From a virus: a stretch of 64,000 nt of DNA. A program made the translations under genes and the position numbers. The notes below the pieces were generated by a model. The model searched no databases. It was not told where the DNA came from and was given only the letters and a program-made list of their open reading frames with translations. Each line of letters starts with the position of its first letter. Position 1 is the stretch's first letter. This document shows, piece after piece, positions 1-5,692 of the stretch. The DNA lies in IMG/VR virus record IMGVR_UViG_3300017917_003053, positions 32,001 to 96,000 of that record; one strand, 5' to 3'.

Positions 1-372
1 GACGATGATCGTGGCCGAGGTTGTTCTAATGGACTTCATGCTGGTGCATTGAATTATGTTGCTGGTTATGGTAGTCTTGAGGCTGGCGATAAGATCGTCA
101 TTGTCAAGATTAATCCCCGTGATGTTGTGAGTGTTCCTAGTGATTGTAATTTTGAGAAACTTCGCACTTGCCGATATGAAGTAGTCGGAGAGTATCAAGG
201 CGAACTTCTCAAGCCACTTTATTCGGCTAGTCTAGATAATGGTGTTGAATATGACTATGACGATGAAGAGGAATATGATAACGATTATGATTGGGGATGG
301 AATGATGAAGAAGAAGATATTGATGATGAATACTATGAAGATGATGAGGAAGATTACGACGATTATAACTAA
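1..372 (+). CDS. rIIB: rIIB-like protein, C-terminal part (5' truncated by the window), with acidic D/E/Y tail
   Basis: Frame 1 is open from base 1: DDDRGRGCSNGLHAG...IVIVKINPRDVVSVPSDC...KLRTCRYEVV matches the conserved rIIB C-terminal motifs. Confidence 0.85.
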   Translation, partial: DDDRGRGCSNGLHAGALNYVAGYGSLEAGDKIVIVKINPRDVVSVPSDCNFEKLRTCRYEVVGEYQGELLKPLYSASLDNGVEYDYDDEEEYDNDYDWGWNDEEEDIDDEYYEDDEEDYDDYN

Positions 373-384
373 TCGTTGAAATGA

Positions 385-441
385 AGATGGGCTGCTGGTG
401 CGGATACTAGTTATTGATTGGTTCGATTCCAATCCTATCTT
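385..441 (+). ncRNA. Truncated tRNA-like structure (acceptor stem, T arm, one internal hairpin)
   Basis: AGATGGG (385-391) pairs with CCTATCT (434-440); T arm ATTGG-TTCGATT-CCAAT (417-433); only 25 nt between the stems, forming one 7-bp hairpin. Confidence 0.55.
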
Positions 442-508
442 TTTGCTGATTATGATAGTAATGGGGTTGCTATCCCGGCATGGTTAATTAATTACAGGAA
501 TAAGAATT

Positions 509-1654
509 ATGTTTAATGGAAATCTTGGGTTTAATCCTTATAGCAAGACTAACGACGTTTGGAATCAAAATGATTGTCAAACGAGAGGAAAGTTCATCAA
601 CTCTTTTGGTGGTCAGCAAATTTATTGTTACAATGGTAATCCTCGTAAGAAGATTAGTAGCATGGCTCATACAGACAATCTAACCACAGCGGTTCATGCT
701 AATCTGAATAACGACTCAGATGTTTACTTTTATGTAAATGGTGGACGAAAGCAGTATGCTATTAATGAGGTACGAGCCTGTTTCGTTGATATTGATGCTG
801 GACGAGATACTAATGGAAATTATCTACCTTCTAAAGAAGTGATGGCTAAGAAGCAAGAGTTTCTTGACAAGATCAACAACTTTCCTGTTAAACCTAGTTG
901 GGTAGTTGATACTCGTAATGGTTATCAGGTTTATTGGGTTCTTGATAAAATTAGCAGACAGTCTCTTAATAAGACTCGCTGGAATGGTATTCAGAAGAAA
1001 CTGGTAAATTACTTTGGTGGAGATGCAAGAGCCATCAAGATTAATCAGATTTATCGTGTTCCTTATACTTGGTGGCGTAAGTGCTGGGAGAAGAAGGCTC
1101 CTTATTACTCTACTATTCTTCAAGGATCAACTGGTCAAACAGTTAATGTTAAAGATTTGATTGAGGCGTTAACTGGTCAACCAGCAACAGTTAATATTGT
1201 TCCTAACTCAACAAGTGATGCTTGGTTTGACCAATGGAGAAAGAAATATAAGCAGTCTGATATTACAGGAGTTCCTGTCTCTCATAATGCTGCTGCTGAT
1301 ATTTGTAGAGCACTATCTGGTCAGGATTGTGGTCAAAAGAATAGTGTTAGTATCAATTCTAACAAGATTTGGTCTGATTTTACTGTTGATGATAATGGCG
1401 AATATACCACAATTGATGTTACCAACCTTGGAAGAATTTACGAAAAGACTTATGGTGATCCGTCGCCAGTGCTTCCCTCTCATGCTGGTAACGGCCATTT
1501 AGATTTGAGTGAGTCCCAGGCCAAACTTTTAAAAACGGTGGTCGAGTACCTCAACCAAGCGTCTACAGCGTTGTATTTCAGCAACAACCGATTCCTTTCT
1601 GGTGCTGCCCGTGATCTGGCAAATCAGATTAGCGATCAATTCTGTATTGGATAA
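509..1654 (+). CDS. RepB-like DNA primase domain protein (AEP superfamily)
   Basis: VYFYVNG, ACFVDID, PSWVVDTRNGYQVYW, GGD...IYRVP motifs. Confidence 0.7.
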   Translation: MFNGNLGFNPYSKTNDVWNQNDCQTRGKFINSFGGQQIYCYNGNPRKKISSMAHTDNLTTAVHANLNNDSDVYFYVNGGRKQYAINEVRACFVDIDAGRDTNGNYLPSKEVMAKKQEFLDKINNFPVKPSWVVDTRNGYQVYWVLDKISRQSLNKTRWNGIQKKLVNYFGGDARAIKINQIYRVPYTWWRKCWEKKAPYYSTILQGSTGQTVNVKDLIEALTGQPATVNIVPNSTSDAWFDQWRKKYKQSDITGVPVSHNAAADICRALSGQDCGQKNSVSINSNKIWSDFTVDDNGEYTTIDVTNLGRIYEKTYGDPSPVLPSHAGNGHLDLSESQAKLLKTVVEYLNQASTALYFSNNRFLSGAARDLANQISDQFCIG

Positions 1655-1656
1655 TT

Positions 1657-2031
1657 ATGCACGAACCTTACGATGATGATATGTCTGACGATCCTTATAA
1701 GTTTTACTTTCAGTTTGATACTGAATGGATAGCAAAGTATATTGATGAGATAGTCAAGAAGTTGTCGGAGTCAGGTTGGGATTATAAAATAACTAATATA
1801 GAAGGATTTCCATACAAATCGTTACCTGTGAATAGTTGGCTCTCCAGTACAGCGGGGGATAAAAACTCCCTGTACTTGGGGAACAACTATTGGAATGAAG
1901 GAGTATGGAAAAAACAACATTTTATAACAGATAAATTACAAAACGAATATGTATTACATTTACAATCTAACGCTGGGTATTTTTTACGCCAGCCTAAATA
2001 TTATAAGGGACTTTACGAAATACTTAACTAG
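1657..2031 (+). CDS. hypothetical protein
   Basis: 124-aa ORF tightly packed in the operon; contains a long DNA hairpin. Confidence 0.6.
   Translation: MHEPYDDDMSDDPYKFYFQFDTEWIAKYIDEIVKKLSESGWDYKITNIEGFPYKSLPVNSWLSSTAGDKNSLYLGNNYWNEGVWKKQHFITDKLQNEYVLHLQSNAGYFLRQPKYYKGLYEILN
1831..1891. repeat. Imperfect inverted repeat, 24-bp stem with 8-nt loop
   Basis: AATAGTTG/CAACTATT, TCTCC/GGGGA, AGTACAG/CTGTACT, GGGG/CTCC paired segments. Confidence 0.8.
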
Positions 2032-2039
2032 GATATATT

Positions 2040-2444
2040 ATGGATTTTACCAATGATGAATGGTTCGTAGTCAAAGATATAGACGGTTTTATAAACTCGT
2101 CTAGAGCATTAGTATTTAATGGGTTTGGTAAAACTAAGGAACAAAGCAAGGAAATATTAGATATAGAGATTGATGATAAGGATCAAGAAGAATTAGATAA
2201 AGTTCTATCGTTCAATGAATCCAAAATTATTATAATTGATATTCTAGAAAAAGAATACCATAAGAATTCTAAAATCAAATATTTATTGAATGATAATTTG
2301 TTTATCAAGATAATAGAATCTCTAAACGACCGAATGACTAGCAATATTTTAAATAGTCTGGTCAATAGAGGCTTAGTGGAAACAGCATACGACGCAGAGC
2401 AAGATGATTTTGTTTTTTGGATTAAAGATCAACAATTGGAGTAA
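2040..2444 (+). CDS. hypothetical protein (possible winged-helix C-terminus)
   Basis: 134-aa ORF; ILNSLVNRGLVE motif. Confidence 0.65.
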   Translation: MDFTNDEWFVVKDIDGFINSSRALVFNGFGKTKEQSKEILDIEIDDKDQEELDKVLSFNESKIIIIDILEKEYHKNSKIKYLLNDNLFIKIIESLNDRMTSNILNSLVNRGLVETAYDAEQDDFVFWIKDQQLE

Positions 2445-2447
2445 ACA

Positions 2448-3338
2448 ATGGCAAATTCTATCAGACCTACACAGTTTTCAGACATTATTGGACAATCAGA
2501 CGTAATTAATAGACTCAATATTATTATTTCTGGATGCAAAATTACTAATAGCGTAGTACCTCATATATTAATTGACGGTCCTCCTGGCCTTGGTAAAACA
2601 ACTATTGCTAGTGCTATTGCAAATGAACTAAATGTAAATCTGCACACTCTTAACGCAGCAAGTATTAGAAGTGCTAAGAATATTGTTCCATACCTTATGG
2701 GTATCGCCCCAAGGTCTATTCTTTTCATAGACGAAATCCATAGACTGCCTAAGTTAGTAGAAGAATTTTTGTATCCTGTAATGGAAGATTTTGTTCTAAC
2801 TTTATCAGATAAAGACGATCAAGAAATCGTAGAGTTGCCCATGTTCACTTTTGTTGGGGCAACAACTAGTGGAGGTAGTTTAAGTCAACCTTTTTATGAT
2901 AGATTTTCTATCAAAGAACATTTGTCTTTTTATAATGATGATGAGTTAGCCAAACTAGCAGGATTGAACGCCAAAAAGTTCGGACTAAATGTTTCAGAGG
3001 ATGATCTATTAGAGATTGCCAAAAGAAGCAAAGGAACTCCTCGCATCCTTAATGCCAGACTACAATGGTACAGAAATTGTGTACTCACACAAAAGAGTAG
3101 TATGTCCGTAGATGAAATTTTTACTATCCAAGGCATAGACTCTAACGGATTTGATATTTATGATCGTTCATACATTAGTGTTCTAAAAAAGAATATTGGC
3201 AATCCTCTTGGTCTGAAAAGTATTTCATCAATAACAGGCATCGCTATAGACACCATCGAAAATAGTATAGAGCCTTTTTTACTCAGAAAAGGATTCATAC
3301 AGAAAACAAGCAAGGGAAGGGTTTTAGGTAAAGTATGA
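2448..3338 (+). CDS. ruvB: Holliday junction branch migration ATPase RuvB
   Basis: IRP..F.DIIGQ, GPPGLGKTT, FIDEIHRL, GATT, GTPRI, IEPFLL..G.I..T..GR. Confidence 0.92.
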   Translation: MANSIRPTQFSDIIGQSDVINRLNIIISGCKITNSVVPHILIDGPPGLGKTTIASAIANELNVNLHTLNAASIRSAKNIVPYLMGIAPRSILFIDEIHRLPKLVEEFLYPVMEDFVLTLSDKDDQEIVELPMFTFVGATTSGGSLSQPFYDRFSIKEHLSFYNDDELAKLAGLNAKKFGLNVSEDDLLEIAKRSKGTPRILNARLQWYRNCVLTQKSSMSVDEIFTIQGIDSNGFDIYDRSYISVLKKNIGNPLGLKSISSITGIAIDTIENSIEPFLLRKGFIQKTSKGRVLGKV

Positions 3339-3655
3339 CTATAAAAAATATAGATATTATCCATATAGTATTAATTATTCTAAATATAGCCTTTTTTCTT
3401 TTTGGTTATATTTTAGGTCGATTAAATAATACCAATGGTGTATATCATAGTCAGAATAATACCCAATCCTTTTTCACAAAACATAAAACCCAAGAGCAGG
3501 ACAGTAACAAAAAAATTGATATTGACTCTACAAAAGTAGTGATAGATATCAAAACGGACAATATGCAAAAAAAATATGATAATCTTGGAGAAACCAAACA
3601 AAGTAACGAACAAATATCTTCAGCAATAAATAAACTAAAAAATATGAGGGGATAA
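3335..3655 (+). CDS. Single-pass membrane protein with C-terminal amphipathic helix; putative actin partner
   Basis: N-terminal hydrophobic IIHIVLIILNIAFFLFGYILG; ends ISSAINKLKNMRG; 1 nt upstream of the actin gene. Confidence 0.75.
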   Translation: MTIKNIDIIHIVLIILNIAFFLFGYILGRLNNTNGVYHSQNNTQSFFTKHKTQEQDSNKKIDIDSTKVVIDIKTDNMQKKYDNLGETKQSNEQISSAINKLKNMRG

Positions 3656-3656
3656 T

Positions 3657-4658
3657 ATGGCAAAAGGTTTAGATGTAGGCACAAGTTTTATAGTACTTTC
3701 TTCAGATTCTGAGAATGGTGTGATCTATAAAGATTTCAGAGATGCTTTTTATATTATTAAACCTACAACACCAGTAGCCACAAAAATGATTGAAAAAGGA
3801 TTATCTGGTAAAATCTTTATTAAAGATGCTGACGGATCATTTATTCTCTTAGGCAAAGACGCTATAGAGAAAGCCATAGAAAGAAATGATACAGCCAAAA
3901 GACCCATGTTTAAAGGCGTAGTGTCAGCAAAAGAAAAAGACGCAAAAAGAATCTTAGCATTTATACTGAAGGAAGTAGCGGGTCAAGCATCAGAACCAGA
4001 TGAAAAACTAGTCTTTTGCGTTCCTGCTCAACCAGTTGACCAAGAAGATGAAGATTTTGATGTCGGGTATCATGAAGACGTAGTAAAAACTATTTTAGCA
4101 GAATGTGGTTATGATGCAAAAGCAATCAATGAAGCAGAAGCATTATGTTATGCTGAATTAGAAGATACAGATTATACTGGAATAGGTATTAGTTGTGGTG
4201 CTGGAATGACAAATGTTTGCGTCATGTTAAACGGTGAACCTACTGTGGTTTTTAGCACAACCAAGTCAGGAGACTGGATTGACCGTATGAGTGCTGTGGC
4301 GACCGGAGAGCCTGACAGTGTTGTTCAAGCAGAGAAAGAGGGCGGGAACTTTAAAATAGGTGAACCTAACGAAAATCCAGTATTAGCAGCAGTATCTGCT
4401 TACTATGATAGACTCATTGATTATACAACAAAACAATTAAGTTCTGCTTTAACAGGACATAAACTTTTACCAAAATTTAAAGACCCTCTGAATATTGTTG
4501 TTGCTGGAGGGACATCACAGGCTAATGGATATATAGAAAAATTTGCAGAAAAATTGAAAGATAATAATTTCCCCTTGGCTGTTAAGGAAATCAAACACGC
4601 AGCAGATCCATTACACGCTGTTTCAAAAGGGTGCCTAATAGCGTCAAAAGTTTTATAA
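3657..4658 (+). CDS. Actin-fold ATPase (MreB/FtsA superfamily), volactin-like
   Basis: GLDVGT (phosphate 1), INEAEA (connect 1), ISCGAGMTNV (phosphate 2), VVAGGTS (adenosine), PLHAVSKG (connect 2). Confidence 0.88.
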   Translation: MAKGLDVGTSFIVLSSDSENGVIYKDFRDAFYIIKPTTPVATKMIEKGLSGKIFIKDADGSFILLGKDAIEKAIERNDTAKRPMFKGVVSAKEKDAKRILAFILKEVAGQASEPDEKLVFCVPAQPVDQEDEDFDVGYHEDVVKTILAECGYDAKAINEAEALCYAELEDTDYTGIGISCGAGMTNVCVMLNGEPTVVFSTTKSGDWIDRMSAVATGEPDSVVQAEKEGGNFKIGEPNENPVLAAVSAYYDRLIDYTTKQLSSALTGHKLLPKFKDPLNIVVAGGTSQANGYIEKFAEKLKDNNFPLAVKEIKHAADPLHAVSKGCLIASKVL

Positions 4659-4682
4659 ACCTTTTTCACGAAGGATCGTACA

Positions 4683-5489
4683 ATGAGACAATTCATGATA
4701 TTTTTATGCTTGTTTTTTGTCTCATACAGTATAGTTCTTGGAGGAACAAGACATCCTCATACTCCAGACTCAAGACATCTTGAATACGGTAAAAAATTTA
4801 AGTGTGTTGCTAAATTAGCCGGAACATATAAAGATAAAAAATATTATGAAGCATCTTCTGTCATAATTCGACCAAAAGTTATATTGACAGCAGCACACGT
4901 TGTATCCAATAGTCAAGAATGTTATGTGGTCCTTAATGACAATAGAATTTATTTGAATAAAATTATTATTCCCAAAGACTTTAAAGAACATGCTTTTGGC
5001 TTAAATGATATAGCAATAGGATTTACATCTGAAGATATGAAACAAGATTTTTATCCAGAGTTATATACAGATAGAGATGAAGTCGGCAAAGTGGTTTCTG
5101 TTGCAGGATTTGGAGTATATGGAACATTTGATACTGGAGCAACAGATGTTGATGTTCAAAGAAGGGCAGGGTCAAATGTTGTAGATTATATTGATCAAGG
5201 ATTATTAATATGTAAACCAGATGATCAAAACAGAACATCTTTAGAATTTTTAATTGCAAGCGGAGATAGTGGAGGTGGATTGTTTATAGCTAAAAAAATA
5301 GCAGGAATTAATTCTTGTGTTATGGCTTCAGACAAAATAACTAATTCGTCATATACTGACGAGTCTGGACACACAAGGGTCAGCGACCATGCAGAATGGA
5401 TAGAAAAAATTATTGCCCTTGAGACAGAAGGACTTGACAAAGAACTGCCTTCTGCTACAATAGTATTGAATACTCTACAAAGTAAATAG
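4683..5489 (+). CDS. Secreted trypsin-like serine protease
   Basis: Signal peptide; LTAAHV, NDIAI, GDSGGG catalytic triad motifs. Confidence 0.9.
   Translation: MRQFMIFLCLFFVSYSIVLGGTRHPHTPDSRHLEYGKKFKCVAKLAGTYKDKKYYEASSVIIRPKVILTAAHVVSNSQECYVVLNDNRIYLNKIIIPKDFKEHAFGLNDIAIGFTSEDMKQDFYPELYTDRDEVGKVVSVAGFGVYGTFDTGATDVDVQRRAGSNVVDYIDQGLLICKPDDQNRTSLEFLIASGDSGGGLFIAKKIAGINSCVMASDKITNSSYTDESGHTRVSDHAEWIEKIIALETEGLDKELPSATIVLNTLQSK
5433..5461 (+). promoter_or_regulatory. sigma70-type promoter
   Basis: cTTGACA-N16-TACAAT with extended TGn, upstream of the 5495 ORF. Confidence 0.65.
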
Positions 5490-5494
5490 ATATT

Positions 5495-5692
5495 ATGTAC
5501 AATAACGATTTTGAAGATAGAAAAAATTACCGTCGAGAAAAACTGTCTAATAAGAAAAAGACCTCCAAAGACCTGGATCAATCTTATAGAGACATTAAAA
5601 AGATCAAGAAAGAATATAGATCAAAAATAGAAGAGATGGAACAGGAAGAATTATGGGAAGAGTGGGAGAATGAAATACATAGAAGAAATTGA
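5495..5692 (+). CDS. small charged hypothetical protein
   Basis: 65-aa ORF downstream of the promoter. Confidence 0.65.
   Translation: MYNNDFEDRKNYRREKLSNKKKTSKDLDQSYRDIKKIKKEYRSKIEEMEQEELWEEWENEIHRRN

Follow-up and report, generated by a model that had tools for sequence, protein, structure and literature searches.

In the archaeon Haloferax volcanii, volactin (VolA, HVO_2015) builds dynamic filaments that are in contact with the membrane at their tips (PMC10869688), and the neighbouring protein, HVO_2016, is CdpA-like with four membrane segments; in CdpA itself, N-terminal membrane segments lead into a cytoplasmic linker that is disordered and then into a small domain at the C-terminus (PMC12126565). 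Among phages, the cytoskeletons described so far are tubulins (PhuZ, TubZ) together with one ParM-like prophage actin, AlpC. The AlpC/AlpA pair of the Corynebacterium prophage CGP3 is induced early, is needed for efficient viral DNA replication and is proposed to recruit phage DNA to the membrane; in the summary that the same paper gives, the phi29 membrane protein p16.7 is described as organising viral DNA replication at the membrane together with host MreB (PMC4446434). Here we analyse a 64,000-nucleotide stretch of an uncultured lake phage (hereafter the window; bases 32001–96000 of the 153,002-bp IMG/VR virus record IMGVR_UViG_3300017917_003053), in which a gene for a 106-residue protein with a predicted membrane helix (3335–3655, + strand) is followed directly by one for a 333-residue actin homologue (3657–4658, + strand), the same two open reading frames (ORFs) that an initial annotation, made from the letters of the sequence, had picked out. 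We suggest, at a probability of roughly 0.55, that the phage encodes an actin module of its own, whose membrane-tethered filaments most likely organise replicating and recombining DNA at the membrane.

Actin-type filaments with a dedicated adaptor are already known, as are virus-encoded cytoskeletons. The pair described here resembles AlpC/AlpA in that a virus encodes both an actin and its dedicated adaptor, and ParM/ParR/parC in that an actin-family filament works with a small adaptor from a neighbouring gene. Adaptors of the ParM type engage the filament through a C-terminal peptide. The differences are equally clear: AlpA binds DNA and has alpS sites, whereas the phage adaptor spans the membrane and is not accompanied by repeats, and ParM/ParR/parC includes a centromere, whereas none was found at the phage locus, where the adaptor lies upstream, is membrane-bound and partners an actin with no ParM match among hidden Markov models (HMMs) or PDB entries. 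AlpACS was likened to ParMRS by its paper (PMC4446434), whereas the phage actin, as far as AlpC can be compared by description, falls in a different family, that of volactin. While phi29 borrows the MreB of its host, the phage studied here brings its own actin, and both couple a phage membrane protein to an actin-type cytoskeleton. PhuZ and TubZ, from jumbo phages and prophages, are likewise phage-encoded and form cytomotive filaments, by which phage DNA or compartments are positioned, but they have the tubulin rather than the actin fold, and no membrane-spanning adaptor is described for them; the phage-cytoskeleton reviews that we retrieved concern tubulins. Our literature search returned no description of a phage volactin with a membrane anchor, and among the volactin papers phages were mentioned once, in a study of a Haloferax regulator. 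The presence of the family in phages, a membrane-spanning adaptor, a tail shared between adaptors and the abundance of the system in lake phages have, on this search, not been described.

Over its full length, the 333-residue protein shares the Pfam family of volactin (PF25216), scoring 219.2 bits (cut-off 35; E = 1.3e-64), with residues 1–329 placed on positions 1–320 of the 321-position profile, and the match was confirmed on the genome record. MreB/Mbl (PF06723) gave 19.2 bits, under its cut-off of 27 and confined to residues 64–209, no Pfam match to ParM/StbA appeared at E-values up to 0.1, and the NCBIfam models for MamK (NF040964, 25.9 bits against a cut-off of 400), salactin (NF053533, 29.3 against 400) and BeeR (NF053558, 27.6 against 530) all stayed below threshold. 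A PDB profile search with 45 diverse family members ranked MamK first (7e-16), followed by BeeR (2e-9), MreB (1e-8) and then FtsA, with no ParM among the 32 hits. The initial annotation, which had likened the protein to volactin rather than to MreB, ParM or FtsA, is borne out by these searches. The AlphaFold model, built for an 85%-identical relative, has a predicted local distance difference test score (pLDDT) above 90 across the whole actin domain; its best Foldseek matches are MreB, BeeR and MamK, with a TM-score of 0.76 to the filament form of MamK, and no close structural match was found in BFVD. By sequence, we therefore assign the actin to the volactin family, whose nearest solved relatives, MamK, BeeR and MreB, are all filament formers. 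MamK acts on a membrane-bound structure, the magnetosome, through adaptor proteins; it is only ~19% identical to the phage actin, and its magnetosome context is absent from the phage.

All five nucleotide-binding motifs of the actin fold are present, and the motifs that the annotation had quoted, along with the terminal helix of the upstream protein, occur in the order that it gave. The phosphate-1 loop GLDVGT (residues 4–9, 3666–3683, + strand) contains D6, G8 and T9, which are invariant or nearly so in the family. The connect-1 segment INEAEA (residues 157–162, 4125–4142, + strand) aligns with 'SEPFMV' of MamK and carries the nearly invariant Glu159, which we take to be the equivalent of the catalytic glutamate. 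The phosphate-2 loop reads GIGISCGAGMTN (residues 175–186, 4179–4214, + strand), and the adenosine-binding motif VVAGGTS (residues 281–287, 4497–4517, + strand) includes the invariant G284 and G285. Further motifs are RPMFKG at residues 82–87, GYH at residues 137–139 and SGDWID at residues 204–209. The phosphate-2 loop has its own family-wide form, S-x-G-x-G-M-x-N, compared with D-I-G-A-G-T-T-D in MamK, so that the canonical Asp and Thr are both replaced; Ser179, at least 90% conserved, stands, by alignment to MamK, opposite the phosphate-2 Asp of MamK and other actins.

Purifying selection on the actin is strong, with a ratio of nonsynonymous to synonymous substitution (dN/dS) of ~0.06 against 52 distinct relatives, at synonymous sites near saturation. 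Together with the Pfam E-value and the more than 2049 clusters at 90% identity that lie near the phage actin, this marks the ORFs as real genes rather than chance ones. The family comprises 930 representatives at 50% identity. In IMG/VR, 307 contigs carry relatives of the actin, a set of over 300 that are 130–240 kb long; the best 80 are 83–96% identical to it, on contigs of up to 243 kb, and the counts of related loci given below (80, ~79 or 74) are drawn from these best 80 of the 307. Across them, conservation falls from the actin (83–96%) to RuvB (69%), a primase-like protein (58%), a protease (49%) and small ORFs (44%), all encoded nearby. Outside the phage's own clade, the nearest actin relatives have ~33–55% identity, and the INPHARED relatives are two only, both from uncultured huge phages (33–34% identity). 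A FastTree phylogeny of 117 family members placed the phage actin in a well-supported clade of 16 rows, separate from the planctomycete clade, and the five members of the 16-row clade that were sampled are all in phage-like contexts.

Beyond phages, a scan of species genomes found the actin family in 402 species, nearly all of them Planctomycetota with a few Omnitrophota. In one class, planctomycete-looking by its tandem pairs, 21 of the 41 genomes sampled have an actin above the Pfam cut-off, often as two adjacent copies, one short and one long. The acidic relative P0037 was considered as a haloarchaeal protein and rejected, since the sampled genomes of its class carry short-plus-long tandem actins as in planctomycete loci. 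In the latter (L091–L183), the actins are often arranged in tandem, one short (~340–390 residues) and one long (~590–900 residues). Three of four long copies tested (P0018, P0058, P0062) gave N-terminal ParB-type helix-turn-helix (HTH) matches of 19.7–21.2 bits; these lie below the Pfam cut-off of 22.6 and a PDB profile search gave no confirmation, so the domain assignment was rejected. Additionally, we observed several unusual architectures among family members. Two relatives of ~700 residues, P0002 (55% identical) and P0009 (43%), contain an intein with a LAGLIDADG homing endonuclease at or just past the phosphate-2 loop, supported by Intein_splicing, LAGLIDADG_3 and Hint_2 matches; we know of no report of inteins in actin-family proteins. 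P0052 (1160 residues) joins a volactin domain to Wzz, GNVR and ParA/MinD-like domains and resembles a tyrosine-kinase co-polymerase, and P0004, P0014 and P0017 (~730–750 residues) each hold two tandem volactin domains in one polypeptide.

Directly upstream of the actin, an anchor-type ORF of 94–121 residues occurs in 79 of the 80 related loci, with a gap of 1–5 nt in nearly all of them; the exception is L063, where the contig breaks off within the actin and no full actin ORF was therefore called. The 106-residue anchor of the window shows no sequence relation to any known family in Pfam (E-values up to 0.1), PHROG or NCBIfam, matches only viral 'hypothetical protein' clusters in the ESM Atlas, and, like the actin, finds no match among the PADLOC defence-system models. 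An alignment of the partners (A5) resolves them into a hydrophobic N-terminal helix, a variable linker and a conserved C-terminal tail of ~45 residues. In the window, the transmembrane (TM) helix predicted by hydropathy and AlphaFold spans residues 6–28 (3350–3418, + strand), with flanking charges pointing to an orientation with the N-terminus out and the C-terminus in. Over 52 distinct partners, the best 19-residue segment of the helix has a mean Kyte-Doolittle value of 2.66, and lysine plus arginine average 0.06 before the helix as compared to 1.54 in the 15 residues after it, the C-terminal side being higher in 50 of the 52. By the positive-inside rule, this excess of basic residues places the conserved tail in the cytoplasm. 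The AlphaFold model has an N-terminal helix at residues 2–31 (pLDDT above 90), a linker below 55 and a terminal helix, in agreement with the hydropathy and with the single-pass membrane protein, disordered linker and terminal helix that the annotation had described. By description, CdpA, and presumably HVO_2016, has a like layout, with a TM part, a disordered linker and a small C-terminal part; HVO_2016 has four TM helices and the phage anchor one.

In one relative (L080:4848-5996, IMG/VR contig 3300034062_005143), an exported trypsin-like domain, the TM helix and the tail form a single 382-residue ORF directly upstream of the actin, while in the window the protease gene is found downstream of the actin instead. 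This frame is either a natural protease-anchor fusion or the result of a lost stop codon; the exported domain preceding the TM helix in the same frame is consistent with the predicted N-out/C-in orientation.

The conserved tail, predicted to be cytoplasmic (residues 61–106, 3515–3652, + strand), is supported by the same alignment, by dN/dS and by AlphaFold. Two conserved stretches, ID..K.V.DIKT and EKKY..LG, are joined in it by a terminal amphipathic helix that closes with NKLKNM(K/R)(G/R), and in the window the anchor ends in ISSAINKLKNMRG. Constraint within the anchor is concentrated here, with a dN/dS of 0.22 in the tail as compared to 0.45–0.50 in the TM helix and the linker, and the anchor is the sole tail-bearing ORF in the 153-kb genome.

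In 46 loci, the partner and the actin share a reading frame. We read through the stop codon and aligned the 30 distinct chains so obtained with 41 actin-only relatives (A4); the chain folded with AlphaFold was the read-through of locus L073, with a 17-residue spacer and an 85%-identical actin, and the control was the partner alone, folded from the same kind of alignment. The read-through chain reached a mean pLDDT of 90.4 (predicted template-modelling score 0.83), compared to 74.4 for the partner alone. While the linker stayed disordered in both (pLDDT below 50 in the chain, ~53 alone), tail residues 71–100 rose to 91–95 from 71–83, residues 81–88 formed a beta strand that is missing in the control, and the terminal helix extended over residues 90–104 rather than 90–100. 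As the partner offers no other long strand, the new strand would have to pair with the actin domain. The prediction is thus supportive of an ordering of the tail that depends on the actin.

The pairing is retained at a locus with a 55%-identical actin, where the order RuvB, partner, actin and trypsin-like protease is kept and the partner has a hydrophobic N-terminus and a tail matched by the tail HMM (E = 8e-6). At loci with 40–46%-identical actins, the upstream genes end in similar tails (ADKLKKML..., LAKLKQLRK..., LDKLRKLKG...) without a TM segment, and tail HMMs detect the 55%- and 46%-identity loci. The gene upstream of planctomycete actins ends in ...ESN.x.V.VK...G..x.L.KLK.L..GG. We defined a tail motif, [KR]L[KR].[LMI][KRQ], from the phage tail alone and scored it in the last 45 residues of proteins; it was present in 58 of 73 upstream genes in Planctomycetota and in 15 of 2669 other ORFs of the same loci (0.6%; Fisher 3e-91, for loci that are mutually related). 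None of the 59 motif-bearing planctomycete partners has a TM segment, which suggests that what these adaptors have in common is the tail, and that the membrane anchor was added by this phage clade. The co-conservation of the membrane gene that had been proposed therefore stands for 79 of the 80 close loci and for the 55%-identity locus, while the element that stays with the actin is the tail and not the anchor. We read the tail as a shared adaptor module of this actin family, to which this phage clade appears to have attached a membrane anchor. Two further leads were dropped: a weak match of one planctomycete partner to DUF7354, a domain that the phage lacks and that nowhere reaches its cut-off, and the tail motif at the N-terminus of P0012 as a possible fusion, as the motif falls where the gene, as called, runs over the 3' end of its upstream neighbour and may come from an over-long gene call.

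The two genes belong to a run of seven tightly packed genes on the + strand. Upstream, a terminator-like hairpin (416–434) ends the preceding transcription unit and is the probable limit of the operon, from a consensus scan that gave 9 terminator-like sites against 2.3 expected; downstream, the limit is set by a strong candidate promoter of the sigma-70 type (5434–5461; 11 of 12 matches, extended -10), found by consensus scan, which would start the next unit. The first gene (509–1654) is primase-like (PHROG DNA primase, 4e-9) and lies upstream of the actin on the same strand in 45 related loci. It is followed by two small genes (1657–2444; 124 and 134 residues) that have no family match in Pfam or NCBIfam searches and are syntenic in 76–77 of ~79 loci. 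Next comes the gene for the Holliday-junction helicase RuvB (2448–3338), which exceeds the NCBIfam equivalog cut-off (290.9 bits against 282), also matches the Pfam RuvB_N, RuvB_C and lid domains, and precedes the actin in 77 of 79 loci. Anchor and actin follow, and the last gene (4683–5489) encodes an exported trypsin-like serine protease (Pfam Trypsin, 1e-10) and follows the actin in 65 of 74 loci. At L084:7022-9751, the locus with the 55%-identical actin, an HNH endonuclease gene follows the actin, and then three exported proteases (trypsin, subtilisin S8, trypsin), so the protease block appears expandable.

The start codon of the anchor overlaps the ruvB stop codon as ATGA, and the actin ATG lies 1 nt past the TAA stop of the anchor, with a GAGGGG Shine-Dalgarno sequence (3646–3651, + strand) read within the last codons of the anchor. 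From this arrangement of overlap, 1-nt gap and internal Shine-Dalgarno, anchor and actin are predicted to be translationally coupled. The Shine-Dalgarno sequence is encoded by the closing codons M-R-G (3646–3655 in the window), and the final tail residues are thus doubly constrained, as peptide and as ribosome-binding site.

The genome around the operon is that of a large phage. CheckV rates the record 100% complete, its G+C content is ~34%, and tail genes and a large terminase are present, the latter sharing no more than 25% identity with the terminase of any cultured phage. No support emerged for a planctomycete host, the phage actin lying outside the planctomycete clade. The window itself contains a replication block with a DnaE split in two, DnaB, a Toprim primase, RecA and ribonucleotide reductase.

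Because the phage encodes a conserved volactin-family actin together with a membrane partner whose tail is predicted to grip it, it probably builds membrane-tethered filaments of its own. In the mechanism that we propose, the actin would assemble into ATP-dependent filaments in the infected cell, as its family and fold suggest, and the translationally coupled anchor would span the host inner membrane once, with a short N-terminus outside and its C-terminus inside. A flexible linker of ~30 residues would present the conserved ~45-residue tail, which would bind the actin, so that the anchor could give filaments a tether or a nucleation site on the cytoplasmic side of the membrane. The tail would here be the module common to adaptors of this actin family, and the membrane anchor the 'cargo' end specific to the phage clade. 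The filaments may then hold or organise replicating, recombining phage DNA at the membrane, in a self-contained version of what phi29 achieves with p16.7 and host MreB. We consider DNA organisation the most likely job because the pair lies within the replication region, where its operon also includes ruvB and the primase-like gene.

Several observations weigh against this reading. Polymerisation of the phage actin is inferred from its family and fold, and the family-wide Ser in place of the phosphate-2 Asp means that nucleotide handling may differ from that of MreB or MamK. Support for docking of the tail consists of the rise in confidence and the new strand predicted in an artificial single chain from an 85%-identical relative, and the terminal helix, being amphipathic and basic, could bind the membrane instead. 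At one 43%-identical relative, the upstream gene encodes ClpP and no tail-bearing gene is found there. HMMs of the phage tails, alone or with four intermediate tails, gave no significant match to the planctomycete tails (E of at least 0.08), and the loci are phylogenetically related, so the link between phage and planctomycete tails comes down to a six-residue motif and its position. The weakest step is the role in replication, for which the evidence at the locus is the gene neighbourhood, viewed alongside the precedents of AlpC/AlpA and phi29.

The alternative that survives best, though clearly less probable than a role in DNA organisation, is that tethered filaments take over the shape or division of the host, remodelling the infected cell by enlarging or rounding it, blocking its division or altering its envelope, and do not act on phage DNA. 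The sole characterised member of the family contributes to a rod-to-disk shape transition and forms filaments that bridge the cytoplasm from membrane to membrane (PMC10869688); a function in the cell shape of an archaeon does not, however, have to apply to a phage. In the same direction, the anchor has no DNA-binding part while being the only tail-bearing protein of the genome, and an exported protease is co-transcribed with the pair and, in one relative, in frame with the anchor. The position of the pair within a replication and recombination block, rather than among obvious host-take-over genes, argues against such a take-over, and no partner from envelope synthesis was found.

Doubtful to a similar degree, as an extension of our reading of the tail, is the idea that it serves as a universal docking peptide for volactin-family filaments, borne by soluble adaptors in planctomycetes and copied by phages onto a membrane anchor. 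Such an anchor could tether phage filaments and also capture, or compete for, volactin-type filaments of the host.

That the tail does not bind the actin at all seems less likely again. The terminal helix would then be a second membrane-binding element or serve another partner, and the actin would form soluble filaments or be anchored otherwise. The helix does combine a hydrophobic face (I, A/I, L, M) with basic residues, like membrane-targeting helices; the planctomycete partners, having no TM segment, could use their tail as a membrane tether; and no natural tail-actin fusion was found among 44 N-extended family members. A second tether would, on the other hand, be redundant on a membrane-spanning protein, and the targeting helices of MinD and FtsA are far more hydrophobic than the anchor tail. 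The gain of confidence and of a beta strand only with actin present, and the company that the tail keeps with volactin-family actins across phyla, likewise favour a tail that docks on the filament.

A segregation system of the ParMRC kind, in which the actin would partition a plasmid-like prophage genome with the upstream protein as adaptor, is very improbable: an actin with a small upstream adaptor and a conserved C-terminal peptide does resemble ParM/ParR and AlpC/AlpA (PMC4446434), and the weak ParB-type HTH matches of the long planctomycete paralogues point the same way, but there is no ParM/StbA match, the adaptor is a membrane protein without a DNA-binding domain in Pfam or NCBIfam, positions 1–5600 hold no iterated centromere-like repeats and only chance-level repeats of two or three copies, and the genome resembles that of a large tailed phage, with replication genes in the window and terminase and tail genes elsewhere. 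Equally hard to sustain is a non-polymerising ASKHA ATPase that has no more than the fold of an actin, for instance an Hsp70-, EutJ- or kinase-like chaperone or enzyme. The phosphate-2 Asp is indeed replaced by Ser, and EutJ and Hsp70-type proteins turn up with weaker structural scores, but by sequence as well as by structure the top-ranking matches all form filaments (MamK, BeeR, MreB), the Pfam family was founded on a protein shown to polymerise in vivo, conservation over the whole surface is very strong, as is typical of filament subunits, and no substrate-binding or lid domains extend the 333-residue core.

Beside the tubulins and AlpC, a volactin-family actin with a membrane-spanning adaptor would be a third kind of phage cytoskeleton. 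It is no rarity, and its actin gene is among the most conserved in these phage genomes. The finding opens the question of how large phages organise their replication in cells that may lack MreB, as well as that of the partners of volactin-type actins, which are present in about half of the sampled planctomycete-type genomes; the shared tail motif provides a concrete peptide with which to seek such partners. If the tail is indeed a universal docking peptide, a large and abundant group of lake phages would rewire a bacterial actin cytoskeleton about which little is known, and the peptide would be a handle for finding every cargo of these filaments in bacteria, archaea and viruses.

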